Source: Basidiobolus meristosporus CBS 931.73 | Lineage: Eukaryota; Fungi; Basidiobolomycota | Direction: 5' to 3' | NCBI GenBank assembly: GCA_002104905.1 | Contig: MCFE01000005.1 | Location: 124,001 to 188,000, forward strand | DNA: 64,000 nt | Shown here: piece after piece, positions 3,653 to 41,989 of the stretch | Position numbering within the stretch: position 1 is the stretch's first letter | Layout: each line of letters starts with the position of its first letter | Notes under the pieces: model-generated | Databases searched by the model: none | Told to the model about the DNA's origin: nothing | Seen by the model: only the letters and a program-made list of their open reading frames with translations | Program-made: the position numbers and the translations under genes

Positions 3653-4099
3653 GATCCCAAAGGTAGAAATTTGGTTTACACATACAATATTTACAAAACA
3701 TAAGATTCTGGCTGGCTTATTGCCAGGTTACAGACTCTTTACTTAAACATTAATTTATATCATATTAGCCAATTCTTAGAATTAGCAAAGGCCTAGAGGT
3801 TTTCAGCATTCTCAAGCTTACCCAAAAGCCTTCAAGTCTTGTACACAGATATTGGAGTTCTTACACACAGCATCTTTATCATCAACATCCAAGTTCTCTT
3901 GAGAGTATAAATAACTTACTTGAACTCAATCAAACAATAAGTGAATATTGGGCAATCCCCATGATTCTCCAAATCACTTCCGATGAGTCCAAAACCATGG
4001 CAGCAAGATTTGCTATTTCTTGACCAAATTTGATGTGTTGACATGAAAAATACACTTGCTACTCACAATAACAACATCAATTGAATGAGCAAACTCAAA

Positions 4100-5083
4100 G
4101 AAAATAAACCTGGAATAAAAAGCGCAATGAAAAAGATATACGTACATAGCTTATTGTAGATCGCACACAAAATGTGCATGAAAGTTAAGCCAATAATGTC
4201 AACGGCATAATGGCATTTAGAAAAACCAATATTCATTTATTTAGGTTGTCCCGAATCCATTTTCCAAATGGGGTGAAAATTTCTGGACCTGACCGTCACT
4301 CATATCTAGTAATTACCCGGTCAAAGCTACCTACGGTGATACGGATTCATGCATGCCCCACCAATTATACACAATTGTGCCATACTATCTGCAACGATGT
4401 TACAAGTATGCACCCTCAACCCATGGCTCACAACTTTGAACAATGTTACAACAAAATTACTCTCATGACAAAAAAACGATATATTACGTATAAAAATGCA
4501 AATCTTGAATACAAAGATGTTATGAATGTTTGCCAAAAGTATTTACAGCAGTGCCATTACCAACACAGTCAACGACGTTCCTAAAGAACAAATTGTTTCC
4601 AGCGTTGGTATCATCTTACAGATCTTCAATGAAAAAATAACCCCCTTGAACTTTCAAGTATGAATAAATCAGTTAAAAATTGGATGAGTACTAAGGCGCA
4701 CCTCCTCCGGTTTTTATATCAAACGGATAATGGCCAATGGTGTTCATAAAGATTGCTATTAAAACGTATTCTAGACAAGTACGTATGCAACTTCATATCC
4801 TCTTGTTTTTCAGTTTTTACGGCTCCAAAGAAAGCTCTACATTAATATCCAAGATTTTGACAAAGGATAATATCGCAGCAAATCAACAGTTACGCGTAAC
4901 AGCAGCTATCTGCAACGTAATACTGGCCTAGAAATCCCAGATGAAAACGACAACTTGCAATCAAATCTTGGTCTACGGGTCACAGTATTCCTGTCCATCC
5001 AATTTGGCAAACATCAAATCACCATTTTTCAAAATAAGTATACAATATTTACATGTCTATATAGATATGGGAATACCAGATAG
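4100..5083 (+). pseudogene. Family-B DNA polymerase relic, copy A (5'-truncated)
   Basis: tac ggt gat acg gat tca = YGDTDS at 4332-4349; downstream NFEQCYNKITLMTKKRYITYKNANLEYKDV; upstream DRTQN...ANNVNGIMAF. Multiple stops and frameshifts. Confidence 0.85.
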
Positions 5084-5961: not shown

Positions 5962-8141
5962 TCAAATTTGAAGGCATGCTGACTGTTCCATCCCTGACAG
6001 CGAAACAATAGTTGATGATTCAGAACCAGCTTCTTGCTTGGGAGTGATATTACTTTCCGCAATCAGATCATGCAGAATAGTGTAATATCTTCCAGCATAG
6101 CCACATCGCTCTCGGATTTGCTTGAGCGTTTCTAGGTTCTTGAACAAGCTAGCTCGTGACGAATTGGCAATCCACTGATCGGACGACTTCGCTTGTAAAA
6201 GAAGTATCGTGCTCGCAGTGAAGATTGGGAACAGCAGAAACAAAACTATCTCTGATGCTCTAGGGCAGCTCACACACGAGGTTACAATGCTAGTCAGACT
6301 GTTTGCCGCATCCATGCATATCAGGGCTGAAGAGGACTGGGAGGTAGATGAAGACTCAGTTCTCAGTACGAAGGGTCGGTGTAGTAAAATCAATGCACAG
6401 TGATACCAGACATGGGCGTAGATAAGTGTGGGACTCTTAGGTGGATTCCCTGTGCCATAGTTTGTAGGAATGTAAGCAAGATCGGCTGGCAATGAGTTTA
6501 GCCACACATCAAGCTGAGAATCTAGATCCATTAAACTCGTGCGGAATTTCGGGAAGTTGCTGGTCAATGGGGCTCTAACTATGTACATGGTGCTCAAAAT
6601 ACGGCCAATCAGTTTGTGAAGCTTTATCACCTCATGGAATGGCCTTAAGGATAGCCCGGTGCGCGGCGAGACACCATTTGGTGTCAATAGGTCGTCGTCA
6701 GTTAAGGATGGCAGCGGTGTATCAAACTGCTGGTCATCAATAGACACAGGCCTCCCTACGCATACACTAGAGAACCGATCTATCAGGTAGCACACCCACC
6801 AGGTCCGCTTTCTTGTTTCCTTCTCTGCTGTTGTTAGCTTGATGTTCCATATATCGGGGTCGCGATGCAGTATGAGGTCTTCAGCCATTCTAATGGCCAT
6901 GCCACTGTACATCCACGATTTCACCCCACCTTGAGATATGTGGTAATAGATGGACATCAGTGCCAAACCTTGAGCGTTTTCTACTGAGCTAGCATTGTAA
7001 GCTTGATCCAACAGAGTCCGTGCCTTCTTAAAGAAGCCTTCCGCATCCAGATTCTCCTTGTTCAACATGCTCTCGGATGATACTAGAGCGGCAGAAAGTG
7101 AAAACATCGCATTCACGAGAAAATACGGCATTTCTTGTTCACTGCGATTTAAGCGCTCCATGAACTCCCCTTTGTGAAGCAACGGGAAAACAGGGTTGAT
7201 TTTCGAAAAGTACACATCCACAAGATAAGCAAAAAGATTTGGAGACGGTAGCGCAGTAGGGTCTGGATTGATATCGACGCGGTTGATAGTTGCTGTGACT
7301 CGCGGTCTTATTTTGAAAAGGTCGTTTTGGTACTTTCGTGAGCCTTGAAGTAAGTACAGGCCAGAGCTGTTCCCGCAGTGTCTTACTCGTCCCTCATCAT
7401 CCAATAACAGCTGATCTCTATTGTTGCAAATTTTTTCCACTTCCGGGTCAGTAGTAAGGGCAATGCGTTGGCTCGTTGTGGCATGCATTTCAGGTTGGGT
7501 AGTCAGTAAGTTGTCTGGCGTGTGCAAGTTCTGAGGGGGCGTACTATCATCGGATTTATCAATTGTGATGGCGGGAGTGTTGGTGACACAAGTGCTACTG
7601 GCAGATTTAGTATCCGGAACGTGTGAGCCTGGAAATATTGTGTATCTGAATTCTAGTGGCTTGGCTTTGGGTGGAGTTATGATAGCGGAATCTCTGTCCT
7701 CTTCAAGTTTCCGCACTTCATGCAAAACAACATCAGCCATTTGTGAATCGTTCTGGACGAGCTCACTGAGAATATGCTCCATTTTGTGCAGTCTACTCTC
7801 AAGTGCTTCTATATAAGCCTTTGGAGGTCCTCGCTTCTTCTTTATGTCGTTATAAGTACACTTTATGCCGCAATACAGACAATATGAACATTCAGGATGT
7901 TCACCATCGCATCGTATCTTCTTCCTACGACAACTATCACATGCTCTACTGACCCGTTGTCTTTTGTGATTATCTTCAGTACTTATACTCATATCTCCGG
8001 CACTTATATGGGCCTTAGCGAAATATAAGACCTTCCTTGAAATAATGAATAGTTGCAGTGTTTGTATTCGAAGAAAAAGTTCCAAGTGGCATGTGCTTAC
8101 GAGTGAGCTTTATACGATTTGTATCGGATAGACTGAACCAT
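5962..8141 (-). CDS. Zn(II)2Cys6 fungal transcription factor, copy A, C-terminally truncated (predicted 704 aa; exons 8141-8101 and 8035-5962)
   Basis: Zn cluster RACDSCRRKKIRCDGEHPECSYCLYCGIKCTY; middle homology region (KSWMYSGMAIRMA, ETRKRTWWVCYLIDR, HCALILLHRPF). A 65-nt GTAAGC...TTTCAAG intron at 8036-8100 joins an in-frame ATG at 8141. Confidence 0.9.
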
Positions 8142-11280: not shown

Positions 11281-11689
11281 AATTCAATTACAATTATTAT
11301 AGCAATTATTGGTACAATCAGTAGCTTTGCAACATGTTCCAAGATTCACCAACTATAATCTGAGTGACCAAGTTACAAAGTACTTCAATGTGATTACAGA
11401 GCTTTCAGCACTTAGTTCCTGACATTTTAGTCTAAATTTCCAATTGGTTCAGCAGTTGACATGATTCTACTATGAGAACTATTATATTTGAAATCATTTG
11501 CTGATCTGCCAGTAAACTGCTGGTACACTGGTGCTAATGTGCTGATATTCTGCTAGTACTTTTCTTTCATATAATTGATAAATCTGTGGTATGAGCAGTA
11601 AGTGATTTCCAAGATTAGTATCAATGCTTGTTGGCTTGGCAACCTCTAGACACTTTATTTGCTGGTTAGCCAGATAACTAGCACCTGAG

Positions 11690-13036
11690 ATACACAGAGT
11701 TGAGGGCTTAGATAAGCCTGGAGTACAGCTGAAAATATGATGGTATTCTCATGGCTTTGAGTTGATATCTTCTCTTGGGATTTGTAAACATGTTCCTGCA
11801 ACCATTCAGAGCACTTTGTGAGTATTGAGTTCCAAGGCCTTTTAAAGTATAAAAACCACCTCCCACATTGCATAAATTATCCAATAGTAACATATCAACT
11901 CCTAGCTTTCCCATACTACAACATTGTATTCATTTTAAAAAACCTATGCAATATTTGACAAGCATTTTGATGTATTGGGTATAAATCTTTACACCTGCCC
12001 ATTGGTATTCTTTTCGGTCTTATTTGCAAGTTTGATGGGCATATGCAAAGAGAATAAATTTAGTATAAAATAACGCGATGAAAAAGATATATATACATAG
12101 CTTATTTCAGATTGTACAAAAAACACGCTTAAAACTTGCGCCAATAATGGCTACGGCACTATGGCATTTAAAAATATCAATATTCATTTATTTAGGTTGT
12201 CCCGAATCTATTATCCAAATGGGGAGAAAATTTCTGGACCTGACGGTCACTCATATATCCAGTAATTACTCGGTCAAAGTTATCTACTGTGATACAGATT
12301 CATGCATGCCCCACCGATTATGCACAATTGTGCCATACTATCTGCAAAGATGTTACAAGTATGCACCCTCAACCCATGGCTCACAACTTTGAACAATGTT
12401 ACGACCAAATTACTCTCATGACAAAAAAACGATATATTACGTATAAAAATGCAAATCTTGAATACAAAGATGTTATGAATGTTTGCCAAAAGTAATTACA
12501 GCAGTGCCATTACCAACACGGTCAACGACATTCCTAAAGAACAAATTGTTTCCAGCGTTGGTATCATCTTACAGATCTTCTATGAAAAAATGACGCCCTT
12601 GAACTTTCAATTATGAATAAATCAGTTAAAAATTGGACGAGTACTAAGGCGCACCTCCTCCGGTTTTTATATCAAACGGTTGATGGCCAATGGTGTTCAT
12701 AAAGATTGCTATTAAAACGCATTCTAGACAAGTACGTATGTAACTTCATATCCTCATGTTTTTCAGTTTTTACGGCTCCAAAGAAAGCTCTACATTAATA
12801 TCCAAGATTTTGACAAAGGATAATATCGCAGCAAATTAACAGTTACGCGTAACATCAGCTATCTTCAACTTAATACTGGCCTAGAAATCCCAGATGAAAA
12901 CGACAACTTGCAATCAAATCTTGGTCTACGGGTCACAGTATTCCTGTCCATCCAATTTGGCAAACATCAAATCACCATTTTTCAAAATAAGTACACAATA
13001 TTTACATGTCTATATAGATATGGGAATACCAGATAG
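11690..13036 (+). pseudogene. Family-B DNA polymerase relic, copy B
   Basis: ORF track shows ESIIQMGRKFLDLTVTHISSNYSVKVIYCDTDSC (YCDTDS at 12285-12302) and NFEQCYDQITLMTKKRY. Confidence 0.85.
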
Positions 13037-13912: not shown

Positions 13913-16026
13913 TCAAAATTGAAGGCAAGCTGGCTGTTCCATCCCTGACAGCGAAGCAATAGTTGATGATTCAGAACCAGCTTCTTGCTTGGGAGTGATA
14001 TTACTTTCCGCAATCAGATCATGCAGAATAGTGTAATATCTTCCAGCATAGCCACATCGCTCTCGGATTTGCTTGAGCGTTTCTAGGTTCTTGAACAAGC
14101 TAGCTCGTGACGAATTGGCAATCCACTGATCGGACGACTTCGCTTGTAAAAGAAGTATCGTGCTCGCAGTGAAGATTGGGAACAGCAGAAACAAAACTAT
14201 CTCTGATGCTCTAGGGCAGCTCACACACGAGGTTACAATGCTAGTCAGACTGTTTGCCGCATCTATGCATATCAGGGCTGAAGAGGACTGGCAGGTAGAT
14301 GAGGATTCAGTTCTCAGTACGAAGGGTCGGTGTAGTAAAATCAATGCACAGTGATACCAGACATGAGCGTAGATAAGTGTGGGGCTTTTAGGTGGATTCC
14401 CTGTGCCATAGTTTGTAGGAACGTAAGCAAGATCGGCTGGCAATGAGTTTAGCCACACATCAAGCTGAGAATCTAGATCCATTAAACTCGTGCGGAATTT
14501 CGGGGAGTTGCTGGTCAATGGGGCTCTAACTATGTACATGGTGCTCAAAATACGGCCAATCAGTTTGTGAAGCTTTATCACCTCATGGAATGGCCTTAAG
14601 GATAGCCCGGTGCGCGGAGAGACACCATTTGGTGTCAATAGGTCGTCGTCAGTTAAGGATGGCAGCGGTGTATCAAACTGCTGGTCATCAATAGACACAG
14701 GCCTCCCTACGCATACACTAGAGAACCGATCTATCAGGTAGCACACCCACCAGGTCCGCTTTCTTGTTTCCTTCTCTGCTGTTGTTAGCTTGATGTTCCA
14801 TATATCGGGGTCGCGATGCAGGCCGAGGTCTTCAGCCATTCTAATGGCCATGCCACTGTACATCCACGATTTCACCCCACCTTGAGATATGTGGTAATAG
14901 ATAGACATCAGTGCCAAACCTTGAGCGTTTTCTATTGAGCTAGCATTGTAAGCTTGATCCAACAGAGTCCGTGCCTTCTTAAAGAAGCCTTCCGCATCCA
15001 GATTCTCCTTGTTCAACATGCTCTCGGATGATACTAGAGCGGCAGAAAGTGAAAACATCGCATTCACGAGAAAATACGGCATTTCTTGTTCACTGCGATT
15101 TAAGCGCTCCATGAACTCCCCTTTGTGAAGCAACGGGAAAACAGGGTTGATTTTCGAAAAGTACACATCCACAAGGTAAGCAAAAAGATTTGGAGACGGT
15201 AGCGCAGTAGGATCTGGATTGATATCGACGCGGTTGATAGTTGCTGTGACTCGCGGTCTTATTTTGAAAAGGTCGTTTTGGTACTTTCGTGAGCCTTGAA
15301 GTAAGTACAGGCCAGAGCTGTTCCCGCAGTGTCTTACTCGTCCCTCATCATCCAATAACAGCTGATCTCTATTGTTGCAAATTTTTTCCACTTCCGGGTC
15401 AGTAGTAAGGGCAATGCGTTGGCTCGTACTATCATCGGATTTATCAATTGTGATGGCGGGAATGTTGGTGACACAAGTGCTACTGGCAGATTTAGTATCC
15501 GGAACGTGTGAGCCTGGAAATATTGCGTATCTGAATTCTAGTGGCTTGGCTTTGGGTGGAGTTATGATAGCGGAATCTCTGTCCTCTTCAAGTTTCCGCA
15601 CTTCATGCAAAACAACATCAGCCATTTGTGAATCGTTCTGGACGAGCTCACTGAGAATGTGCTCCATTTTGTGCAGTCTACTCTCAAGTGCTTCTATATA
15701 AGCCTTTGGAGGTCCTCGCTTCTTCTTTATGTCGTTATAAGTACACTTTATGCCACAATACAGACAATATGAACATTCAGGATGTTCACCATCGCATCGT
15801 ATCTTCTTCCTACGACAACTATCACATGCTCTACTGACCCGTTGTCTTTTGTGATTATCTTCAGTACTTATACTCATATCTCCGGCACTTATATGGGCCT
15901 TAGCGAAATATAAGACCTTCCTTGAAATAATGAATAGTTGCAGTGTTTGTATTCGAAGAAAAAGTTCCAAGTGGCATGTGCTTACGAGTGAGCTTTATAC
16001 GATTTATATCGGACAGACTGAACCAT
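13913..16026 (-). CDS. Zn(II)2Cys6 transcription factor, copy B, truncated, with a 22-aa internal deletion (predicted 682 aa; exons 16026-15986 and 15920-13913)
   Basis: Same domains as A, about a dozen residue differences; intron 15921-15985 (65 nt); 66-bp in-frame deletion near 15425. Confidence 0.9.
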
Positions 16027-16744: not shown

Positions 16745-17860
16745 TTATGTATGTTTTCGCCGAAACATTAGGTATCCAGAACTTGAAATTTCTCAAAGTT
16801 GTCCAAGCAGCCCCAAACTATACGCACATGTTTTTGAGACCTTCTTAAGGACTCTCTACGTATTGTATCTGCCAAGACTATGTAAAAGTACAATCGCTAC
16901 TTTTACATTCAATAAATCCTCAAGTGAGAGCCATTTAGTCTACTTGCTTGCCCAATCACTTTCAGTATCTCTACAACTCTCACAACAGCTTATGAGCCCT
17001 TAACAGTCAGTCTTTAGAACACTTATTACTATAATTATCTGAATCTCATCCTTTGCTGAATAGTTGCATGAGTCTAACTGTGCCACATTTTGTAATTATT
17101 ATTAAATATTCACCTTAGTCACTTTATGGTTTATTGAATGTAAAAGTAGTATTTGTACATGTACATAGTCTTGGCAAAACAAACGTGTAGAATATGCTCA
17201 GGAAAGTTTCAAGAATATATGTGCAAAGCCTGGGGCTGTTTGGAAAACTCATCAAATTTCCATATTTGGGTACCTGATATTTTGGTGAAAAAATATTGAA
17301 TAAATCTTCACATGGGATCTGATTAGTAAGCTCTAGGATTTATTGGTAATGATCTAAGTGGCAAAGTTTGGTCAAAATCTAAGTGGAATTAGGATTCTTA
17401 CAACACCCCCACTTAACTCAATATATGTACCAACTTATTTTAATTATATTCTAAAATACTCAAATATATCTCCAGCTAATGGTTTGGTAGATATGTCTGT
17501 AATAATCTCATACAATGAATGCTTGTATATGACTTGTATGGCAAAACACTGGCTGCGCTCCTTGTAATACATTGTATGCTCTCTGCACACTTCATGGCTG
17601 AGAGGCCTATTACAGTAGCCACCTGGTCCTTTATCTCTACTCTTAAGGTGTTGAATCAAAGTAATATTGTTCATGTGGAAAACAGCTTATTGCTCAACAA
17701 CACAACACTATTATATCATTCTGTCCTCCTCATCACAAACAACAGCAGAAAAGCAGTTGGACAGCATGTTTTAAGACCTTTGGTGCTCATACTCATGGTC
17801 CCCAACATTGATCTCAAAAGAAGATCAAACATGAGCTTTCTCCAGTACAATTGATGAAAC
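16745..17860. repeat. Duplicated copy of the inverted LTR pair and CACTA relic seen at 8850-10150
   Basis: Collinear with 8850-9830 and 10050-10170, with many transition differences. Confidence 0.75.
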
Positions 17861-19100: not shown

Positions 19101-19189
19101 ATCATATAGTTTTTTCATATAGTTGCTTGTTAGCTTGGCCTCCTCGAGAAAAACTTGTTTGCTGGTCTGCCAAACAACTAGCACCTGAG

Positions 19190-20595
19190 ATACGCAGAGT
19201 TGTGGGCTTAAATAGGCCTGGAGTACAGCTGAAAATATGATGGTATTCTCATGGCTTTGAGTTGATATCTTCTCTTAGGATTTGTTAACATGTTCCTGCA
19301 ATCATTCAGAGCACTTTGTGCATATTGAGTTCCAAGGCCTTTTAAAGTATAAGAACAACCTTCACATTACATAAATTATCCAAGGGTAGCATATCAACTC
19401 CTAGCTTTCCAATACTACAACATCGTATACATTTTGAAAAACCTATGCAATATTTGACAAGCATTTTGATTTATTTTTAATGCTAAGATAAGCAAAATGT
19501 GTACTCAAAGCGGCTTTAAAATGGGCACATATGGGTATAAACCTTTACACCTGCCCATTGGTATTCTTTCCGGTCTTTTTTGCAACTTTGATAGGCATAT
19601 GCAAAGAGAATAAATTTAGTATGTAATAACGCGATGAAAAAGATGTATACACATAGCTTATTTCAGATTGTACAAAAAACACGCTTAAAAATTGCGCCAA
19701 TAATGGCTACGGCACTATGGCATTTAAAAATATCAATATTCATTTATTTAGGTTGTCCCGAATCTATTATCCAAATGGGGAGAAAATTTCTGGACCTGAC
19801 GGTCACTCATATATCCAGTAATTACCCGGTCAAAGTTATCTACTGTGATACAGATTCATGCATGCCCCACCGATTATGCACAATTGTGCCATACTATCTG
19901 CAAAGATGTTACAAGTATGCACCCTCAACCCATGGCTCACAACTTTGAACAATGTTACGACCAAATTACTCTCATGACAAAAAAACGATATATTACGTAT
20001 AAAAATGCAAATCTTGAATACAAAGGTGTTATGAATGTTTGCCAAAAGTATTTACAGCAGTGCCATTACCGACACGGTCAACGACGTTCCTAAAGAACAA
20101 ATTGTTTCCAGCGTTGGTATCATCTTACAGATCTTCTATGAAAAAATGACCCCCTTGAACTTTCAATTATGAATAAATCAGTTAAAATTTGGATGAGTAC
20201 TAAGACGCACCTCCTCCGGTTCTTATATCAAACGGTTGATGGCCAATGGTGTTCACAAAGATTGCTATTAAAACGAATTCTAGACAAGTACGTATGCAAC
20301 TTCATATCCTCTTACTTTTCAGTTTTTACAGCTCCAAAGAAAGTTCTACATTAATATCCAAGATTTTGACAAAGGCTAATATCACAGCAAATCAACAGTT
20401 ACGCGTAACAGCAGCTATCTTGCAACGTTAATACTGGCCTAGAAATCCCAGATGAAAACGACAACTTGCAATCAAATCTTGGTCTACGGGTCACAGTATT
20501 CCAGTCCATCCAATTTGGCAGACATCATGTCACCTTTTTTCAACCTAAGTAAGCAATATTCACATGTTCTATATAGATATGGGAATACCAGATAG
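19190..20595 (+). pseudogene. Family-B DNA polymerase relic, copy C
   Basis: YCDTDS at 19841-19858; TKKRYITYKNANLEYKGVMNV in ORF 19845-20093; ANNGYGTMAF upstream. Confidence 0.85.
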
Positions 20596-21474
20596 ATAGA
20601 TCCTGATGTTTATTTCTATAGAAATCTACTATAGAGGTGCTTCCCAACAACAAGGTAGATAAGGTCGCCAACCATACAACACTCGGCCCTGGAAACATAG
20701 TTCGGTTGGTGGTACTAGTATTTTCCGAGGGAGATGGTGGGTGATTTATTAATGCTTGACTGGGGGGAGGGGGGGAGATAATATATCCATTTAGAGAAGC
20801 TACAAGATTCCTGTTTGTCTCCACTGGGTTGTTTTGAGCCAGCACTCTTTCCTATTATTGATGGCTTCACCATACACTTCATACTTGTCATTCGAGAATG
20901 CCTAACTAGGTTCGGGGCCCAGCATACCAGTCTGGCCAGCTACATGGTAATTGAGAATCTCTTATTGCCCATACTGGGAATGTCTTTGGGGGCTGGTATA
21001 TTTTACATTACGTTGTTGTAGCGGGCCGATCATGGGTTCTGCGCATGGGCACATTTAACATAAAATAAGATCAATTAGATTTTACACTACGAAGACTCCA
21101 ACACGATTCGTATGCGACGTATATGTAGACAAAGCGTACAGAGACGCATTGACCACACTGGCTTCCAAGGATATTTGCTATCACTACTCTAATGGCTGAT
21201 AAGATCGTAGGCGATTGCCAACTCGGCACCAGAAACATATTCAGTTGTTTGAAGTGTGCTCATGGGTCTAGTGTTCCGTAAGGAAGAGGAAGATCGAAGG
21301 CCAGACTCATTAGTAGGTCTATAAGTGTTGGGATAGATGGATGTGAAAGTGCATCCATCGAGTACTGAGGAGAATTTGGTGGTTGCCTCTGCTGTACTGC
21401 TTGTCGTGGGTCGACGGCCAGACGAGTTGACTACGACCCCTGCCACACATTGGCCAACGTAATCGTTCCACTCG

Positions 21475-23654
21475 TCAGAATTGAAGGCAAGCTGGCTGTT
21501 CCATCCCTGACAGCGAAACAATAGTTGATGATTCAGAACCAGCTTCTTGCTTGGGAGTGATATTACTTTCCGCAATCAGATCATGCAGAATAGTGTAATA
21601 TCTTCCAGCATAGCCACATCGCTCTCGGATTTGCTTGAGCATTTCTAGGTTCTTGAACAAGCTAGTTCGTGACGAATTGGCAATCCACTGATCGGACGAC
21701 TTCACTTGTAGAAGAAGTATCGTGCTCGCAGTGAAGATTGGGAACAGCAGAAACAAAACTATCTCTGATGCTCTAGGGCAGCTCACACACGAGGTCACAA
21801 TGCTAGTCAGACTGTTTGCCGCATCCATGCATATCTGGGCTGAAGAGGACTGGGAGGTAGGTGAGGATTCAGTTCTTAGTACGAAGGGTCGGTGTAGTAA
21901 AATCAATGCACAGTGATACCAGACATGGGCGTAGATAAGTGTGGGACTTTTAGGTGGATTCCCTGCACCATAGTTTGTAGGAATGTAAGCAAGATCGGCT
22001 GGCAATGAGTTTAGCCACACATCAAGCTGAGAATCTAGATCCATTAAACTCGTGCGGAATTTCTGATAGTTGCTGGTTTTTGGGGTTCTAACTATGTACA
22101 TGGTGCTCAAAATACGGCCAATCAGTTCGTGAAGCTTTATCACCTCATGGAATGGCCTTAAGGATAGCCCGGTGCGCGGAGAGACACCATTTGGTGTCAA
22201 TAGGTCGTCGTCAGTTAAGGATGGCAGCGGTGTATCAAACTGCTGGTCATCAATAGACACAGGCCTCCCTACGCATACACTAGAGAACCGATCTATCAGG
22301 TAGCACACCCACCAAGTCCGCTTTCTTGTTTCCTTCTCTGCTGTTGTTAGCTTGATGTTCCATATATCGGGGTCGCGATGCAGGCCGAGGTCTTCAGCCA
22401 TTCTAATGGCCATGCCACTGTACATCCACGATTTCACCCCACCTTGAGATATGTGGTAATAGATGGACATCAGTGCCAAACCTTGAGCGTTTTCTACTGA
22501 GCTAGCATTGTAAGCTTGATTCAACAGAGTCCGTGCCTTCTTAAAGAAGCCTTCCGCATCCAGATTCTCCTTGCTCAACATGCTCTCGGATGATACTAGA
22601 GCGGCAGAAAGTGAAAACATCGCATTCACGAGAAAATACGGCATTTCTAGCTCATTTCGATTTAAGCGCTGCGTGAACTCCTCTTTGTGAAGCAGCGGGA
22701 AAACAGGGTTGATTTTCGAAAAGTACACATCCACAAGGTAAGCAAAAAGATTTGGAGACGGTAGCGCAGTAGGATCTGGATTGATATCGACGCGGTTGAT
22801 AGTTGCTGTGACTCGCGGTCTTATTTTGAAAAGGTCGTTTTGGTACTTTTGTGAGCCTTGAAGTAAGTACAGGCCAGAGCTGTTCCCGCAGTGTCTTACT
22901 CGTCCCTCATCATCCAATAACAGCTGATCTCTATTGTTGCAAATTGTTTTCACTTCAGGGTCAGTAGTAAGGGCAATGCGTTGGCTCGTTGTGGCATGCA
23001 TTTCAGGTTGGGTAGTCAGTAAGTTGTCTGGCGTGTGCAAGTTCTGAGGGGGCGTACTATCATCGGATTTATCAATTGTGACGGCAGGAGTGTTGGTTAC
23101 ACAAGTGCCACTGGCAGTTGGAGTATCCGGAGCGTGTGAGCCTGGAAATTTTGCATATCTGAATTCTAGTGGCTTGGCTTTGGTTGGAGTTATGATAGCG
23201 GAATCTCTGTTCTCTTCGAGTTTCCGCACTTCATGCATAACAGCATCAACCATTTGTGGATCGTTCTGGATGAGCTCACTCAGAATGTGCTCCATTTTGT
23301 GCAGTCTACTCTCAATCGCTTCTATATAACCTTTCGGAGGTCCTCGTTTCTTCTTTATGTCGCTATAAGTACACTTTATGCCACGATACAGACAATATGA
23401 ACATTCAGGATGTTCACCACCACATCGTATCTTCTTCCTACGACAACTATCACATGCTCTACTAACCCGTTGTCGTTTGTGATTATCGTCAGTACTCATA
23501 CTCATATCTCCGGCATTCATATGGGCCTTAGCAGAATATAAGACTTTCCTTGAAATAATGAATAGTTGCAGAGTTTGTATTCGAAGAAAAAATTCCAAGT
23601 GGCATGTGCTTACGTGTGAGCTTTATACGATTTATATCGGATAGATTGAACCAT
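21475..23654 (-). CDS. Zn(II)2Cys6 transcription factor, copy C, truncated (predicted 704 aa; exons 23654-23614 and 23548-21475)
   Basis: All six Zn-cluster Cys intact; intron 23549-23613 (65 nt, GTAAGC...CAAG); same 3' lesion as A and B. Confidence 0.9.
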
Positions 23655-24879
23655 TAAACCTTAGAGGTATGATGGTAAAACCTACTCGGGCAAATCTACA
23701 GTGATTAAGACGTTGTTGTACCAAATTTGGCTGCCATCAAATTCCTAGCTTGCACATGAACAGCCAAGTCATGAAGATCTTGTGCCTGATTTATCCCGAT
23801 TAACCTATTTTATAACCATGATGAATTCGGACGGAGATCAATTCTGTGTTGTCTGGCACCTGACATCCGCAGGGAGGTGAATGTACCACGTCCTAGTGGG
23901 ATCATCGTCGGTGGTCATTTCATAAATGAATAAATCGATTAAATAATCCTAAAATCAGGCTGCAAAATCATTGATGTTTCACTTTCGATTTTGATTTGTC
24001 ATGGTAGTTATGGTACTTTGAAAATACCAGTGGAAGAGAAAAACGGCATCAAGCTCAAAAAGCTAACGGAATTAGCAAGCGTATTTCCCACATTTTTTTG
24101 CCCATAGCTTACCAACTCTCGACATCTGTTTCAACAGCCAATAGCTTTCATTCTTCTGCTGATATCGGCTGCCCTTCCGCTTCTGTGGTTTTCCCGGGAA
24201 TATTGACTAACTGTCTCAAAGATCTGTAACAGCCTAGCTTGATTAATCGATGCGATAAGCCTTAATTTCTCTTTGAGACGATGGCACAAATGCTTCTGGA
24301 AATGCGGCAAACCAAATCAATTAGGAACACAGAAGTGGTATGCAGAATTGATAGGCTACAAGGGGTGAGCGATGCTGGCACTCCTTTCCATTCAATCCAC
24401 AGGAGAGCCGCACGTGCACTCAAAAGAAGCCGGCAGAGACTTTGCGTGCCAAAATGATCTGTGTGTTCCGAAGAAGGTTATTCAGATATGCTGAGTATTA
24501 AGCAACTGTACTTACTGAAATAAGCTGATGCTGATCAAATAGAAATCCACTCAAAAATCCCGCTTCTGTTTTTGACTGTCAGATGCCCCAAATATATCGG
24601 GCTTGATGCATATTCCTTGTATTGTTGACAAGTATCAAGCAGTTTGTGATCTACTCACTGCCACTGGAGCTTATTGCTACTCGTGTTAGTTTTCGCAGCT
24701 TGCAGTGCTACTGGTATATTTTTCCATTTGCATAATATGTATGATGGCTGCGATGAAATGGTCCTGTGCCTATATTTATTGTAAATTTTGTATTTACATC
24801 TAAATATTCACCTATCTTAGCCATCTACATCATTACTTACAAATCTTGGAAAAATCTGGCAAGATTCCATGTGGGGATT

Positions 24880-31020: not shown

Positions 31021-31352
31021 CAAAACTCCAGGAACCCAGAATATGAATATTCTCAAGATTGTTTAAACAGCCCCAGACTTAGAACACATGTTCTTGGGAC
31101 CTTTCTAAGCATATTCTATGTGCTTGTTGTGCCAAGATCATGTAAAGGTACATATACAACTTTTACATTCAATTATTAATTAAGTTAAAGCCACATAATC
31201 TACTTGTTATTGCAGGACTCTTAAGACACCAAAGACTACTTTCTTATAACAGCATATTTATCTTTACACTCAGACATGATAGTTATATCCATCCAACTTT
31301 TCAGTCAAGGTAAGTTTCCAGTAATGGCAGTGGTGGACACTCAGTTGAATAA

Positions 31353-34300
31353 GTGCTTGTATTGCCAAGACCATGTAAAGGTATAAATACTCCTTTTACA
31401 TTCAATGAACCATTAAGTGAGAAATACATTGTCTACCTGTTCTCCCTATCACCTCCAATATCTCCAAGACTCTTACAACAGGTTATGAGCCCCAAGCTTT
31501 CACTTTCTGCAATGTCTACTACTGCTATTACTGAATTTTTTCCTCTGCAGAAAAGTTGGACGGATCTAACTACCAAGTGCAAAAGGTGAAGATGAAGATG
31601 CTGCTAAAAGAATGAAGCCTTTGGGATACTGTCATGGGAGAAGAATGCCCTCCAAAAATGTGGGATAGGAAGCCTTAAAATACCAGAAGAAAGAATAAAG
31701 TGCCTTTAACTGCATTTGCCTTAATGATGAAGACAAATTGCTAATTCAATGCTCAAGAGCAAAAACAGCAAAGAATGCCTGGGTGCCATTCAAAGGCACC
31801 TGCCAGTCATGTCCAGCTGCTAAGAAAAAGCATCTAAGACATAAATTTGCTACTACAGAGATGCAGCCAGGAGAAGTAATGAAATATTTCACAGAATTAC
31901 CCTACTGGTTGATGAGATGCAATCTGTGGGTGTACCAACTGCTGATGATGCTGTGATAGTAACCAACCTGACTAGCCTGACAGACAATTTTCAGGTCCAT
32001 GTATCAGCTCTAGGGTCCAGAGCTGAAGATTTGACCTTATGTTATGCATATGAAGGGCTCCTGGATGAAGAATTAAGAAAATTAAGCACCAATAAGAAGG
32101 AAGAAGAAAATGCTTTAATAAGCAGTAACAGCAATAAAGGAGGTACACAAAACCCTTAAATGGCAACAGCAACCTGTCTTACAACTACTGCAAAAGGAAA
32201 GAACACACAATAGACCAGTGCTTCAAAAGAGAGATAATCAGCAAAGGAAGCCTGATATGCAAATGCTGCAACAACAGAAGATAGGCTATTCATATCTGCA
32301 CTAAAAATGACTAAAAACAAGGATTATCACATGTGGTACATTGACTCTGGAGTATCTCAACACTTTATACACCTAACAGAACATTTTATCCAATATCAAA
32401 AAATTACAATTAAGAGGCTTTCATAGGTGACAATAGAACACTTGATGCAGTGGGAGAGGGAACTATCCTAGTAAGCATTAAAAGCAGTGATGGAAGCAAT
32501 GCATTGGCCTTTAAAGTAGTTGTCTATGTACCAGAAATAGCCAAGAACCTACTATCTGCAAGCAAGGCCTCTGCAGAAGGACTCAGTTTCAACTTTAACA
32601 ATTTGGGATGCAGGATCACTGATCAAAATGGTGCCCACATTGCTTCAGGTTTCAGAGATCAGAATCTACACTGGTTGACTTTTATTACATCATATCTGAA
32701 AGCCGACATAAGTAACTTAGGTTAAGAAACACCAATGCTTTGGCACAAGAGTTTTTGACATACCAATTAGAATTATTTGCACAAAATGATTAGAGATCTG
32801 CTAGTTTCTGGAGTTAAAATTGATCTCCCAGCTAATTTGGATCACTGTGAAGCCTGCATATATAGGAAACAAGTCAGACAACTGCTCAGGAGCTCTGGGT
32901 TAGTAAAAACTAAGAAAAAATTAGATCTAACTCACTCAGATAGGTGTGGACCTATGCCATATTTATCCTTAGGCAGGATGAAGTATTTGATCACTTTTAT
33001 TAATGCTTTTACAATATCCACATGGGTCTACTTCATGGAGAGAAAGGAAGAAGCTCTGTCTAAGTACAGAGAGTTAAAAGCTATGGTGGAGGGAGAAGCT
33101 GGTGAAAATTCAAGAAAATATGCTCCAACAATGGTGAAGAATATACCTCAAAATTCCTCATCCACCTCTGCCAAATTCATGGGATAAAGTAAAAGACTAC
33201 TGTACCATACTCCCCACAGCAATATGAAGCAGCAGAACATGCAAACCAATCTACAATTGATACTGCAAGATCCATGATTCATGATCTGTTTATCTTATGA
33301 TATTTGGGTGGAATCAGTTGCCACAGTTGATTACCTTAAAATAGGAGTTTTAACAGAATACTTAGTAATTCTACTCCATTTGAATCATGGTATGGATACA
33401 GACCAAGTGCAGAACATCTAAGAATATTTGGGTGCATAGCATATGCCAAGAAACTGCTTGGAAGTAAGTCAAGACTTGTGCCAAAAAGTGTAGAATGCAT
33501 ATTTTTGGGCTACTGCAATGAGTAAGGCATACAGACTCTGCAATACCAAAGCAAAGAGGCTGATCACGTATGGGGATTTGTTGATTGATGAAAGCTCAAA
33601 ATTCTCACAATAAATGACATCAGATGATGACAAAAATTTGATCTCAAGTCCACCAACAATCAGCATTGAATCAGAGCAAAACAATGAAACCTTTTCTACT
33701 CCAGGAGACTCTACAAACATGGTCCAGCCTGAATCAGTGCCCAGGAATATCCAAGAAGTGAGCATTCTAGTATCAAATGCCCAGAGATCCAACTGGAAAA
33801 GAAATAACCCATATTACCATATCAATGAGGGTACAAACTTAGCCTATGCCTATTCAGTCCATATTGCTGAGCCCCAGACTGCAAAGGAGGCCCTAAGTAG
33901 CCCTCAGACAAAGCTTTGGAGATCTGCAATGACTGAGGAATATCAGGCCCTGATTAGGTAGAAACCAAATTTTCATGCTAGAACTAAGCACATATATATT
34001 AGACATCATTTTATACATGAAGCTATAGAGAGTAACTTAGTTAGCTTAGCTTACCATCTTTCAGATGAAATGATTGCAGATATATTTACTAAATCATTAG
34101 CTAGAGACAAGTTTGAATATCTTAGGTCAAAATTAGGACTAGTCAGTATGAGCATTTAGCTAAGTAGGAGTGTTTTAAAAATATGTAATTCCACCTAAAT
34201 ACTCACCTAACCTAGTCACTTAGGTCATTACCTTCAAATTCTAGAGAATACTAACCAAATTCCTTGTTGGGATTTACTTAGAATATTTTCACCAAAATAC

Positions 34301-34517
34301 CAGGTACCCAGAACATGAAAATTCTCAAAGCTATCCAAACAGCCTCAAACTTTGCACACATATTCTTGGGACCTTTCTTAATCATTCTCATGTCTCTTAT
34401 GCAAAGACTATGTAGAAGTATAAATACCACTTTTTCATTCAATAAATCATCAAGTGAAAACCACATAATCAACTTGTCCTCCCAATCACTACCAATATAT
34501 CCAAGACTCTTACAACA
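31353..34517 (+). mobile_element. Internally deleted Copia element (partial 5' LTR, PBS, gag, PR, IN; nearly all RT and RNase H lost; 3' LTR 34171-34517)
   Basis: LTR ends at 31480, then GGTTATGAGCCCC. Near 33955 the sequence jumps from the RT start (EEYQAL) to the RNase H end (catgctagaactaagcac). PPT-like agtaggag precedes the 3' LTR. Confidence 0.88.
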
Positions 34518-35934
34518 GAGTTGTGGGCTTAGAGAAAGCTGGAGTTCAGCTAAAAATATAACAGTATTCTTGTGGCCTTGAGCTGATTTCTTATCATGGG
34601 GTTTGTGAACATGTTCCTGGGATCATTCAGAGCACATTGCAAGCATAGATTTTCCAAGGCCTTTTAGAAGTACAAGAACCACCTTCATAGTCCATATTTA
34701 ATCCAATGGCAGCATATAATCTCTAAGCTTTCCCATACTATAGCATTGTATACATTTTGAAAAACCCATGCAATATTTGACAAACATCTTAATTTATTTT
34801 AAATGCCAAGATAAGCAAAATATGTACTCCTGCGGCTTTAACATGTATACCTATGGGCATAAACATTTACACTCGCCCATTGGTACACTTTCAGGTCTTT
34901 TTGCAAATTTGATGGACATACACGAAGAGAACAAATTTAAAATAACATAACGCGACGAAAAAGATATATACACATAGCTTATTTCAGATCGTACACAAAA
35001 CACACTTAAAATTTGCGCCAACAATTGCTACGGCATTATGACATTTAAAAAAATCCAAATATTTTGATTTCGATCGCGCCAAATCCATTACCCGAATGGG
35101 GAGAGATATCTGGACCTGATGGTCACTCATATATCCAGTAATTACCCGGTTAAAGTTATCTACGGTGATACAGATTCATGCATGACCCGATTATATACAA
35201 TCGTGTCACACAATCTGCAAAGATGTTACAAGTATGCACCCTCAACCCATGGCTCCCAACTTTGAAGAATATTATGACAAAATTATTCTCATGACCAAAA
35301 AACGATCTATTATGTACAAAAATCCAAATCTTAAATACAAAGATGTTACGAACGTTCGCCAAGGATATTGCCAATTTGCCAAAAATATTTACAGCAGTAC
35401 CATTACTGACACGGTCAACAACATTCCTAAAGAACAAGTTGTTTCCAGCGTTGATATCATCTTACAGATCTTCCATGAAAAAATGACCCCCTTGAACTTT
35501 CAATTATGAATAAATCCGTTAAAAATTTGTATGAGTACTAGGACGCACCTTCTCAGGTTCTTATGGCCAAACGGTTGATCGCCAACGGTGCTCATAAATA
35601 TTACTATTAAAATGGATTTTAGACAGGTACGTATGCAACTTCATACCCTCTTACTTCTCAGCATTTACAGCTCCAAAGAAAGCCCCACACCAATATCCGA
35701 GATTTTGACACAGGCTAATATCGCAGCAAATCAACAGTTACGCGTAACATCAGCTATCCGCAACGTAATACTGGCCAAGAAATCGCAGATAAAAACGGCA
35801 ACTTGCAATCGAATCTTGGTTTACGGGTCACAGTATTCCAGTCCAACCAATTTGGCAAACATATCAAATCATCTTTTTTCAACCCAAGTTGGTAATATTT
35901 ACATGTTCTATATGAATATGGGAATACCAGATAG
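34518..35934 (+). pseudogene. Family-B DNA polymerase relic, copy D (best preserved), cut at its 5' side by the Copia LTR
   Basis: Stitched translation: PIGTLSGLFANLMDIHEENKFKIT*RDEKDIYT*LISDRTQNTLKICANNCYGIMTFKK/SKYFDFDRAKSITRMGR/LDLMVTHISSNYPVKVIYGDTDSCM/...NFEEYYDKIILMTKKRSIMYKNPNLKYKDVTNVRQGYC.../ELSIMNKSVKNLYEY*DAPSQVLMAKRL. Motif B at 34996-35034, motif C at 35161-35178. Confidence 0.9.
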
Positions 35935-36528
35935 ATAGATCCTGATGTTTATTTCTATAGAAATCTACTATAGAGGCGTTTCCCAACAGCAAGGCAGATA
36001 AGGTCACCAACCATAGCACACTCGGCACCGGAAACATAGTTGGTTGGTGGTACTAGTATTTTCCGAGGGAGATGGTGGGTGATCTATCAATGTTTGGCTG
36101 GGGGGAGGGAGTGAGCCAATATATCTATTTAGAGAAGCTACAAGATTCATGTTTGTCTCCACTGGGGTTGTTGTGGGTCCACAGCCAGTACTCTTTCCTA
36201 TTATTGATGGCTTCACCATACACTTCATACTTGTCATTTGAGAATCCCTAATTAGGTTCGGGGGCCCAGCATACCAATTTTGCCAGCTATTTGAGAATCT
36301 CTTATTGCCCATACTGGGAATGTCTTTGGGGGCTGGTATATTTTACATTACGTGGTTGTAGAGGGCCAGTCATGGGTTCTGCGTATGGGCACATTTAACA
36401 TAAAATAAGATCAATTAGATTTTACACTACGAAGACTCCAACACGATTGGTATGCGACGTATATATAGACAAAGCGTACAGAGACACATTGAGCGCACAG
36501 GCTTCCAAGGATATTTGCTATCACTACT

Positions 36529-39353
36529 CTAATGGCTGATAAGATCGTAGGCGATTGCCAACTCGGCACCAGAAACATATTCAGTTGTTTGAAGTGTGCT
36601 CATGGGTCTAGTGTTCCCTAAGGAAGAGGAAGATTGAAGGCCAGATTCAATAGTAGGCCTATAAGTGTTTGGATAGGTGGATGTGAAAGTGCATCCATCG
36701 AGTACTGATGAGAAATTGGTGGTTGCCTCTGCTGTGCTGCTTGTCGTGGGTCCACGGTCAAATGGGTTGGTTATGGCCGTTGCGACACATTGAATAATGT
36801 AATCGTTCCACTCATTGAAATTGGAGCCCATCCCATGAGCTCTGGAGGTGGTATCGTCGAATTTCCCCCCGATTCCAGTTGTGTTGGGGACGAACAATGC
36901 AGGATTGAGCGTACTGGTGCCTAGAATGCCACTATTTTTGGCTTGTTCAAAGGCTCCGGGTATGGCATACGGGTCCAAAGTAGCTATGATATCCAAGTTG
37001 GGCGAGGTACGTTCTTCAATAACCTTAAAAGCACCTTCTACGTAAGGAGGTATACCTGAAAACCCCATGGTAAGGCTTGTAGGATAAAGGGGTGTTCTTA
37101 CTAAGTCATCATTTTTTAGGATGAGACCTAGCAAGTATTGATTTTGCTGGATTCTAGCACGCGACTGATCCCTATAGATGTCATCGGGCTTGGCTGATTG
37201 CGAATCAATGGTCGATGACTCAACACCAGTTTCTTGCTTGGGAGTGACATTACTTTCCACTATTAGGTCAGACAGAATGGTGTAATATCTTCCAGCATAC
37301 CCACATCGCTCTCGGATTTGCTTGAGCGTTTCTAGGTTCTTGAACAAGCTAGCTCGTGACAAATTGGCAATCCGTTGATCGGACGACTTTGCTTGTAAAA
37401 GAAGTATCGTGCTCGCAGTGAAGATTGGGAACAGCAGAAATAAAGCTATCTCTGATGCTCCAGGGCAGCTCACACATGAGGTCACAATACTGGTCAGATT
37501 GTTTGCTGCATCCGTGCAGATCTGGGACGAGGAGGACTGGGAGGTAGATGAGGATTCAGGTCTCAGTACGAAGGGGCGGTGTAGTAAAATCAATGCACAG
37601 TGATACCAGGCATGGGCGTAGATAAGTGTGGGGCTTTTAGGTGGATTCCCTGTGCCATAGTTTGCAGGAACGTAGGCAAGATCAGCTGGCAATGAGTTTA
37701 ACCACACATTAAGCTGAGAATCTAGATCTATTAAACTCGTGCGGAATTTCTGGTAGTTTCTGGTTTTTGGGGTTCTAACTATATACATGGTGCTCAAAAT
37801 ACGGCCAATCAGTTTGTGAAGCTTTATCACCTCATGGAATGGCCTTAAGGATAGCCCGGTGCGCGGAGAGACATCGACTGTTGCCAATAGGTCGTCGTTC
37901 GTTAAGGATGGCAGCGGTGTATCAAACTGCTGGTCATCAATAGACACAGGCCTCCCTACGCATACACTAGAGAACCGATCTATCAGGTAGCACACCCACC
38001 AGGTCCGCTTTCTTGTTTCCTTCTCTGCTGTTGTTAGCTTGATGTTCCATATATCGGGGTCGCGATGCAGGCCGAGGTCTTCAGCCATTCTAATGGCCAT
38101 GCCACTGTACATCCACGATTTCATCCCACCTTGAGAAATGTGGTAATAGATGGACATCAGTGCCAAACCTTGCGCGTTCTCTATTGAGCTGGCATTGTAT
38201 GCTTGATCCAACAAAGTCCGTGCCTTCTTAAAGAAACCTTCCGCATCCAGATTCTCCTTGTTCAATATGCTCTCGGATGATATTAGGGCGGCAGAAAGTG
38301 AAAACATCGCATTCACGAGAAAATACGGCATTTCTTGTTCATTTTGATTTAGGCGCTCCATGAACTCCTCTTTGTGAAGCAGCGGGAAAACAGGGTTGAT
38401 TTTCAAAAAGTACACATCCACAAGGTAAGCAAAAAGATTCGGAGACGGTAGCGCAGTAGGGTCTGGATTGATATCGACGCGGTTGATAGTTGCTGTGACT
38501 CGCGGTCTTATTTTGAAAAGGTCGTTTTGGTACTTTTGTGAGTCTTGGAGTAAGTATAGGCCAGAGCTTTTCCCGCAGTGTCTTACTCGTCCCTCATCAT
38601 CCAATAACAGCTGATCTCTATTGTTCCAAATTTTTTCCACTTCCAGGTCAGTAGTAAGGGTAATGTGTTGACTCGTTGTGGCATGCATTTCGGGCTGGGT
38701 AGTCAGTAGGCTGTCTGATGTGGGGAAGTTCTGAGGGGGCGTACTATCATCGGATTTATCAATTGTGATGGTGGGAGTGTTGGTTACACAAGTGCCACTG
38801 GCAGATGGAGTATCCGGAGCGTGTGAGCCTGGAAATTTTGCGTATCTGAATTCTAGTGGCTTGGCTTTGGGTGGAGTTTTGATAGCAGAATCTCTGTTTT
38901 CTTCGAGTTTCCGTACTTCATGCATAACAGCATCAGCCATTTGTGGATCATTCTGGATGAGCTCACTAAGAATGTGCTCCATTTTGTGCAGTCTACTCTC
39001 AATCGCTTCTATATAACCTTTCGGAGGTCCTCGTTTCTTCTTTATGTCGTTATAAGTACACTTTATGCCACAATACAGACAATTTGAACATTCAGGATGT
39101 TCACCATCGCATCGTATCTTCTTCCTACGACAACCATCGCATGCTCTAATGACCCGTTGTCTTTTGTGATTATCTTCAGTACTCATACTCATATCTCCGG
39201 CATTCATATGGGCCTTAGCGGAATATAACACCTTCCTTGGAATAATGAATAGTTGCAGAGCTATATTCGAAGAAAAATTTCCCAAGTGGTGTGTACTAAC
39301 GAGTGAGCTTACGTGTGAGCTTTATACGATTTATATCGGACAGACTGAACCAT
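36529..39353 (-). CDS. Zn(II)2Cys6 transcription factor, copy D, full length (predicted 915 aa; exons 39353-39313 and 39235-36529)
   Basis: One open frame with Zn cluster (RACDGCRRKKIRCDGEHPECSNCLYCGIKC), middle homology region and an S/T-rich tail ending ELAIAYDLISH; intron 39236-39312 (77 nt). Confidence 0.92.
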
Positions 39354-41989
39354 TAGACCTTAGAGGTATGATGGTAGCACCTACTTGGGCAAATCTACAG
39401 TGATTAAGACGTTGTTGTATCAAAATTGGTTTGCCATCAAACCATTCCTAGCTTGCACAAGAACAGCCAAGTCATGAAGATCGTGTGCCCGATTTATCCC
39501 GATTAACCTATTTTATAACCCTGATGAATTTGGAAGGAGACCAATTCTGTGTTGTCTGGCACCTAACATCCGCAGGGTGGTCAAAGTACCCCGTTCTAGT
39601 GTGATCATCTTCGGTGGTCTCTTGAAGGCAAGATGTACTAAAGAATGGCATTTCATACCTGAATAAATCGGTTAAATAATCCTAAAGCCAGACTGTAAAA
39701 TCATTGATGTTTCACTTTCGCTTTTGTCTTGCCATGGTAGACATGGTACTTTGAGAATACCACTGGAAGAGAAGCGCGGCTTCAAGCTCAAAAAACTAAC
39801 GGAATTGGCCAGCGTATATCCCGCATTTTTTTGCCATTAGCCTCCCAATTCCCGACATCAATTTCAATAGCCAATAGCTTTCATTCTCCCGCTGATATCG
39901 GCTGCCCCTCCGCTTCTGAGTTTTTCCTGGGAATATTGACTAACTGTTTCAAAGATCTGTTATAGCCTAGCTTGATTAACTGATCCAATAAGCCTTAATT
40001 TCCTTTTGAGATGATGGCACAAATGCTTTTGGAAGTGCGGCACACCAAATCAAATAGGAACACAGAAGTGGTATAAAGAGATGACAAGTTACAAAGGGTG
40101 AGCGGTGCTGCCTATCCTTTCTATTCAGTCATCAGAAGAGCCTCACGCGCACTCAAAAGAAGCCAGCAGAAACTTTGTCTGCCCAAAACGATCTGTGTGC
40201 TCTGAAAAAGGTTATTCGTTGGGCATTAAGTAACTGTACTTACTGAAAGATGCTGATGCCGATCAAGCAGATATCCACCCAAGAATCCCGCTTTTGTTTT
40301 GATTGTTGGATGTCCCACAAATACATCGGACTTGATGCATATTCCTTGTATTATTGCGCAGTTTGTGATCTACTCCATGCCAATGGAGCTTATTAATATA
40401 CTTCTTGACTTTCTCAGATTCCAGTGCTGCTGGTATATTCTTCCGTTGATGTAAATATGCATCCTGTACTTATGTATATCAGTTTTAGTTGCTTTGCATA
40501 ACCCCAATGCTCACCATACATTTTATGCCTGGGCATAGCCCATTGCTGGAACACACAGCTAGAAGGAGCTGCAATGTGTATTCAGTGGCTCTTACTTCCA
40601 GATTTGATGAGTCACAGTGCACTTTGTAGTCTAAGGAAGTCCAAGCTGAGTCAAAGTAATCCTAGTTACATGTGTGTAACATCTGGGGGCCTATTAACAA
40701 ATCTTGCAATACTCATACTCTGATTATCTAATAAAGTAAAATATTATAAGTATATCCCAACAAATACTTGCACAAGGCAATTGATGATGCATAGACTGTG
40801 ATTAGGGTGACTATGTAAGTGAAATATAAAGGTGTAATCATACACTTTCATCTCTGGTGCATTCTGATATTAATACTGGGGTAAAGTCTAACATATAACT
40901 TGGGCAGGATATACCAAGGCCAAATGGCTGTGATCTTCTTTAAATATGTCATCCATGACCAATGAAATACTTGTAAGGTCAAATAGAACACTTGATTTTT
41001 AAATAATTATTTATTCAGTCTTAGAGCAGTGCTTGCACCTCTTGACAATAATTCACAATAAACATGCACAATATGTAGTATTCATTTTGTTATCACCTTG
41101 GCAACTCACAAACATGAGATTCTGCCAAGCTTATTGCTAAGTTTTGAATCACTTATCAAAGACACACTTTGTATAATGTTAGACTTGTTTCATTTGATAG
41201 TGCCACATGATGACAGCTAATTTATACTGCTGGAATGATCTGGCACCCTACAGCACTCTCCAGCACTATAGTTTCTACTCTAATGCCAGTTGTAGGAGAC
41301 TATTACTGGTAGTTTTGCTCAAATGCTTTTTTGTGTCATGATCACATGACAACCATGAACACCCATGCCAAATTTCAGCTTCCTAGCTCAATTTCTAAGA
41401 GATTCCTTCTGGAACCTTCTACTACCTTCCAGAAAGTTCCTGACCCTTCCAAACCACTGTTACACAATGGAACATTCCATGGAAGCTTCCCATTGTATTT
41501 TTCATAGTCCAGTACCATATATGGAAATACCAGGATACATGACTTAGTCACATGATCAGGTGACCTAATCCACTTCCCCATCCTGTCTCAGTGCTGTGTC
41601 ATCTATGTCATTTTCCCCAGCACCATTGCTGTGCCTCACCCCACAACCCCATTAGTATTAGCTAATATCTCTCGGCATCAGTATAACCAAAAAGTATATA
41701 TAGTCCTATCCCCCTTATGTATTCCTCAGTCTGATAAATACAGGTCTTGAATAAACAGCCTTGCCTTGAATCCTGCCTTGCCTTGATGGTCCACACCTAA
41801 GTCCTTTCCTGCCATGCCTAGCTTTTCCTCCTGCCTTGTGTCTATTCATAACATTTTGTTGCTCAGAATAATACTTTTCTTGCTTATTCACTGTGGATAA
41901 TACACCAGACACATTTTGCACAGTAGATGTCTTGGTGCATGAATATACTCTGCATCAACAAGTATCTTGACTATTTTAGCTAGTGTGCT

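Follow-up and report, generated by a model that had tools for sequence, protein, structure and literature searches.

A dead family-B DNA polymerase fragment, likely from a fundsalphavirus-type virus, present four times beside a transcription factor gene in Basidiobolus meristosporus

The window, a stretch of 64,000 nucleotides of a Basidiobolus meristosporus contig, contains a unit of 5-6 kb which self-comparison showed to be present four times amid Copia and Gypsy elements. In every unit, the relic of a family-B DNA polymerase (PolB) on the plus strand lies tail-to-tail with an intronless gene encoding a Zn2Cys6/Fungal_trans transcription factor. Repeats of LTR families were found at or close to the unit ends, and no terminal inverted repeats bounding the unit were found in copies 3 and 4, the two examined. 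The features of the locus are:

34171..34517, plus strand: 3' LTR of the Copia retrotransposon at about 31350-34517; it abuts copy 4 of the unit.
34518..40468, no strand assigned: copy 4 of the duplicated unit, without terminal inverted repeats; the other copies lie at about 4085-8859, 11625-16751 and 19124-24746.
34520..34857, no strand assigned: CpG-poor segment common to copies 2-4, carrying the proposed motif A; its PolB similarity is not above chance.
34858..35589, plus strand: PolB relic, copy 4, the best preserved, with frameshifts at about 35053, 35106, 35188 and 35487 and stops at about 34950 and 35541.
19537..20250, plus strand: PolB relic, copy 3; its ends were mapped from copy 4 and are approximate.
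11985..12695, plus strand: PolB relic, copy 2, ends approximate.
4085..4742, plus strand: PolB relic, copy 1, truncated at the 5' end.
36529..39186, minus strand: transcription factor gene, copy 4, intronless and full-length, tail-to-tail with the relic.
21475..23499, minus strand: transcription factor gene, copy 3, its C-terminal part lost by a deletion common to copies 1-3.
13913..15871, minus strand: transcription factor gene, copy 2, with the common deletion and an extra 66-base gap.
5962..7986, minus strand: transcription factor gene, copy 1, with the common deletion.

The relic in copy 4 comprises about 240 codons (34858-35589) and covers the palm, the fingers and part of the thumb. As the first-pass annotation had claimed, motif B, motif C (YGDTDS at 35161), the TKKR region and a thumb segment all lie on the plus strand in the proposed order, and the three further copies were found near 4085, 11985 and 19540. 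In a Pfam scan of single frames, with X written at stops, two frames of copy 4 matched DNA_pol_B (PF00136) above the curated cut-off (E 1.2e-9 and 1.2e-6), confirming a family-B polymerase of the RNA-primed type; one frame of each of copies 1-3 matched the same profile at or below the cut-off. Frameshift-aware alignment of copy 4 with a profile of intact relatives scored 342 over 34858-35580, with four frameshifts and two stops, compared with 25 for the reversed and 29 for the reverse-complement control. The extent proposed initially, 34518-35934, had to be narrowed at both ends. A motif-A-like stretch upstream (34520-34860) was equalled or surpassed by shuffled sequences in 4/40, 8/40 and 10/40 cases for copies 4, 3 and 2, respectively. 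Similarity past about 35590 was likewise at chance level (4/40 and 12/40 shuffles), and a C-terminal thumb remnant beyond this point was therefore rejected. Intact compact relatives possess both motif A and the 3'-5' exonuclease domain; the latter had no match anywhere in the 64-kb window. The relic is a fragment. Moreover, none of 19 other family profiles used to search for a second viral gene matched the window. The CpG ratio rises from 0.09 to 1.14 roughly where PolB similarity starts. The observed-to-expected CpG value is 0.71 for the transcription factor and 0.87-1.14 for the cores of the four relics, against 0.03-0.10 for the Copia and Gypsy elements; the relic has been spared the CpG loss seen in the retrotransposons of the window.

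Three of the frameshifts (at about 35053, 35188 and 35487) are common to all four copies, implying that the polymerase was dead before the duplication. A 20-base gap is common to copies 1-3, and copy 4 represents the earliest split from these. The relic of copy 4 differs by about 13% from those of copies 2 and 3, close to what the synonymous sites of the transcription factor show (dS 0.14-0.15). The LTRs that flank copies 1 and 2 are common to both, at 94.6% identity. Segmental duplication is the simplest reading of the four copies, probably through LTR-mediated recombination. Four separate infections were rejected, since the polymerase was already broken and was then copied together with the host gene region. 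The 5' end of the copy 1 relic (4085-4235, the first 150 aligned bases) is 22% divergent from copy 2, against 0-8% for the remainder of the unit; copy 1 is possibly a mosaic that arose by recombination with an older fifth copy.

For the relic, dN/dS was 0.72-0.74 (p 0.25-0.3), within the range of the control frames (0.43-1.07), in a test noisy enough for 4 of 10 control comparisons to reach p <0.05. For the transcription factor it was 0.25-0.57, significant in all six pairs (p 0.03 to 1e-10). Selection on the relic is thus not detectable, and the relic is predicted to yield no protein, whereas the transcription factor is under purifying selection. This applies also to factor copies 1-3, the C-terminal truncation common to them notwithstanding. 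The best relatives of the factor are found in B. meristosporus (80-92% identity) and in Basidiobolus ranarum (57%, for copy 4 over 914 columns), and additional paralogues reside on the same contig and on two others.

The intact proteins nearest to the relic are compact PolBs from metagenomes, mostly of 740-860 amino acids, which provided 23 matches among 278 candidates. The best of these, P0001, scored 93 bits with a single-frame query, compared with at most 35 bits for archaeal enzymes, 23 for Pol alpha, 16 for poxvirus-type polymerases and 12.9 for yeast Pol delta. Copy 4 is 34-48% identical to the compact PolBs (n=51), with 48% over 232 columns to P0001, 21-28% identical to PolBs of other viral contigs (n=10) and 20-26% to archaeal ones (n=15). 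The resemblance to poxvirus E9 noted at first is hence not reflected in the scores. The suggested archaeal likeness fares no better, as the AU test additionally rejected a grouping of the relic with the 15 archaeal PolBs (p 1.5e-4). A grouping with the 10 other viral-contig PolBs was also rejected (p 4.4e-5); the supplement of PMC8575486 assigns two of these to Pimascovirales PM_01 and one to Imitervirales. Furthermore, the spacing of about 42 residues between motifs B and C, to which the first-pass annotation had attached taxonomic weight, has no diagnostic value. Among the PolBs measured, those of the compact clade have 41-45 residues, seven of nine from other large viruses have 42 and all six archaeal ones have 41, and we rejected the spacing as a marker because of this overlap.

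In a quick tree of 77 rows, which did not include relic copies 1-3, the relic fell within the compact clade (SH-aLRT 98) beside P0001 and P0083, on a long branch (0.97). In a bootstrap tree of 46 rows with copies 1-3 included, it was again placed in the compact clade (bootstrap/SH 95/92) beside the same two proteins, and its subclade with Mortierella sp. GBA30 received 96/98. Both trees exclude seven distant IMG/VR PolBs (L011, L013, L015, L020, L023, L026 and L031). They also comprise neither the Pithovirus PolB nor the Basidiobolus sequences of Gong et al., so the family name used below is based on shared hosts and gene set; eukaryotic Pol delta, alpha and zeta and bacterial Pol II are likewise not among the rows, and host enzymes are therefore excluded by scores. 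With this basis, the scores, the nesting in the tree and the AU tests uphold the proposal of a large dsDNA virus fossil and not a host replicase. A profile search yielded 940 proteins at E <=1e-60 among 6289 candidates; proteins of Mortierella sp. GBA30 and Spirogloea muscicola are among the 120 of these that were listed. An IMG/VR search with P0001 found no close relative. The best solved relative of the compact-clade profile is Pol delta (400 bits), as expected for many large-virus PolBs, and 12 of 12 compact PolBs scored far below the NCBIfam Pol II cut-offs.

We then considered the gene neighbourhood of the intact relatives at 27 loci, 20 of which carry a clade PolB ORF. Each locus is a segment of no more than 20 kb on an incomplete contig, and several of the conserved ORF families carry no annotation; of 22 metagenome motif matches, six lacked a clade PolB ORF and do not count among the clade loci. 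One representative per neighbour family was scanned (two loci, L083 and L191, are near-identical). Recurrent families encode RPB1 as two parts (at 9 and 6 of the 27 loci), RPB2 (7), RPB5 (8), an SF2 helicase (8), a D5-like helicase (7), a capping enzyme (7), a flap nuclease (7) and an uracil-DNA glycosylase (6). A split RPB1 is also a feature of Pithovirus. The D5 protein matches ASFV C962R, and an AEP-like family has its nearest neighbours in Nucleocytoviricota clusters, which we take as a lead only. Replication and transcription genes of the Nucleocytoviricota type, namely D5, capping enzyme and RNA polymerase subunits, are thus present in the relatives. Several listed relatives carry inteins. 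Accessory genes of the relatives encode HET domains, a phage-type lysozyme and B-lectin proteins (L188:1330-2874, L186:11385-13238, L081:2313-3302, L083 / L191), and the HET domains fit a fungal host. One clade contig of 37,136 bases (L084 / L189-L190, contig 3 of G001) lies inside a bin of Mycoavidus cysteinexigens, a bacterium living inside Mortierella hyphae; it is likely mis-binned viral DNA.

We consider it very probable that the relic is a dead PolB fragment, likely of a fundsalphavirus-type (Pithovirus-related Nucleocytoviricota) virus of Basidiobolus, which likely reached its four copies as a passenger of the transcription factor. The donor would have encoded a compact PolB. Its intact relatives carry genes for an RNA polymerase of their own, a capping enzyme, a D5 primase-helicase and an SF2 helicase, which makes cytoplasmic replication and transcription of the donor likely. 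A piece of viral DNA would have entered the chromosome about 0.9 kb past the stop codon of the Zn2Cys6 gene, where the relic now lies, perhaps by illegitimate end-joining or with the assistance of a retrotransposon. It would then have decayed in place, acquiring the three frameshifts found in all four copies. Subsequently, the 5-6 kb region would have been duplicated, probably when the LTRs around it recombined unequally, with copy 4 the first to separate from copies 1-3. Thereafter, selection would have acted on the transcription factor, with none detectable by dN/dS on the relic. The locus has not been listed previously, yet the kind of element is already published.

A variant of this explanation is that the donor belonged to the same lineage but was a capsid-less, plasmid-like cytoplasmic DNA element of about 60-95 kb, inherited within hyphae. 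We regard this as rather unlikely, although several observations speak for it. No capsid or A32 packaging ATPase was detected by Pfam in the 58 neighbouring ORFs, which come from partial contigs, and the one bin searched, that with the 37 kb clade contig, gave no match to Capsid_NCLDV. An ORF of capsid size (441 amino acids) in one relative was rejected as a capsid candidate, as it resembles unannotated ascomycete proteins. Contigs of 55-95 kb carry 25 of the 120 listed relatives, and no longer contig is in that list, which hints that genomes of the compact clade are small. Known Pithoviridae/Orpheoviridae-like isolates, by comparison, have amoeba hosts and genomes of several hundred kb. HET-domain genes occur in the loci of three relatives, and a capsid is absent from the shared-gene list of Gong et al. 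(PMC7017919). Against this, the loci are short segments of incomplete contigs with unannotated conserved families, and Pithovirus-like viruses are described as having no A32 and a highly divergent capsid protein (PMC9546926), so that a Pfam miss is expected either way. The variant would modify the main explanation and not displace it.

Additional evidence on this lineage came from sequencing runs. Runs X4-X6, which come from a single sample (S2) of one study and share the species label of X1, contain contigs that align with three relic pieces at 82-88% identity, against window positions 34933-35589. These PolB contigs reach 3,962 and 5,560 bases, at a depth of 3,813-4,914 in X4 and X5 and of 1,665-2,044 in X6. 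Long X4 and X5 contigs with transcription factor homologues have a depth of 23-25 (shorter ones up to 67), and the PolB contigs are thus about 150-220 fold deeper than the long host-gene contigs, bearing in mind that contig depth is not copy number, that this is one sample and that short pieces only were aligned. A second PolB variant is present at low depth (14-18, and 6-8 in X6), about 260-325 times shallower. The deep form has no frame break over a 287-base piece spanning two of the relic frameshifts, and continues past 35589 into a thumb motif that is conserved. Contigs that are long, unbroken and of uniformly high depth suggest near-identical copies, as from a replicating molecule, and this points to an extrachromosomal, replicating element beside one chromosomal copy. 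The signal might also stem from a repeat that was amplified recently, or from a virus of some organism sequenced alongside. Runs X1 and X2 cover all 30 bins and possibly derive from the window's own sample, hence they are not independent; in X3 the relic core was without cover. We hold it to be an evenly balanced question whether the relic lineage is an extant replicating virus or capsid-less episome of Basidiobolus, present in S2 at a few hundred copies per host genome plus one chromosomal copy, within a widespread, small-genome (about 60-95 kb), Pithovirus-related group of terrestrial fungi reported as fossils only. In the literature searched, outside which most subscription papers fell, we found no report of an active or extrachromosomal member of the compact clade.

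The polymerase and the transcription factor might alternatively form one mobile unit, either a mobile element or a virus that captured the factor, with each copy representing its own insertion. Both genes occur together in four of four copies, the factor is intronless and its close paralogues are found on two other contigs. Nevertheless, this is very unlikely: terminal inverted repeats are absent from copies 3 and 4, the PolB was broken prior to copying, the flanking LTRs common to copies 1 and 2 (94.6%) are as in a segmental duplication, the factor is a member of a native Basidiobolus family, none of the 58 ORFs from the loci of the relatives is a Zn2Cys6 gene, and the spacer is not covered by the deep X4-X6 contigs. 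A processed pseudogene of host Pol delta, alpha or zeta could be envisaged for an intronless relic amid retrotransposons, the second frame of which has weak Pol zeta hits (E 0.02) as its sole solved-structure matches. This is highly improbable given the score of yeast Pol delta against that of the compact PolBs, the 48% identity to P0001, the firm nesting in the compact clade and the 82-88% identical relative, the behaviour of which is unlike that of a single-copy gene. Equally improbable is an archaeal or bacterial polymerase acquired by horizontal transfer: the top solved-structure matches are archaeal (E 7e-8) and the motif spacing is similar, but the AU test rejects the archaeal grouping, archaeal identity is low, and the sole close match among 80 prokaryote-genome loci is the Mycoavidus-bin contig, which carries the viral gene set and was likely mis-binned from a fungal host.

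The fossil, likely of a fundsalphavirus-type PolB, adds one locus to a published list and shows a viral scrap multiplied by hitch-hiking on the duplication of a host gene. The depth signal outweighs it in importance. Active dsDNA viruses of fungi were shown only recently, and in a different lineage, the Mycodnaviridae (PMC13533422). If a culturable Basidiobolus carries a replicating fundsalphavirus, the infection of fungi, the particles and the genome size would become directly testable.

The closest known system is that of the fundsalphaviruses, which Gong et al. (2020, PMC7017919) placed next to Pithovirus as its sister and reported from 14 fungi, including B. meristosporus and Mortierella, with relatives in plants. 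Their account describes endogenous, often broken PolBs that often adjoin retrotransposons, and a shared-gene list with D5, SF2 helicase, SAM methyltransferase, RPB2, RPB5 and split RPB1, in which no capsid appears. Similarly, the present relic is a broken endogenous PolB with stops and frameshifts, near retrotransposons of an early-diverging fungus. The same companion genes recur in its intact relatives (each at 6-9 of 27 loci), with none in the window, and it groups with the Mortierella sp. GBA30 and Spirogloea proteins, which are not Gong's own sequences. In contrast, the locus is not one of the three B. meristosporus copies given by Gong et al., which lie elsewhere, on contigs of 137,082, 92,759 and 33,329 bases. 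It forms a four-copy array amplified along with a host transcription factor, and it has a relative at very high depth, whereas the fundsalphaviruses were described in that account as endogenous only.

Pithoviridae and Orpheoviridae-like Pimascovirales, as portrayed in PMC9546926, have no A32 and a divergent capsid, matching the lack of hits in the relatives of the relic; they differ from the compact clade, the contigs of which do not exceed 95 kb among the 120 listed, and the kinship is drawn here through the placement by Gong et al. The fundsbetaviruses and the 1.5 Mb Rhizophagus element (PMC10640383) likewise show multi-copy viral polB scattered through a fungal genome, with no capsid gene reported; in contrast, they are Asfarvirus-related elements of Glomeromycota and, by the placement in these papers, lie outside the compact clade. 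Mycodnaviridae (PMC13533422) are related to Algavirales/Imitervirales, possess a capsid gene and infect mainly zoosporic hosts, and that account treats other fungal PolB clades as distinct from them. Nevertheless, as giant viruses of fungi with both endogenous and active states, they provide a precedent for an active form.
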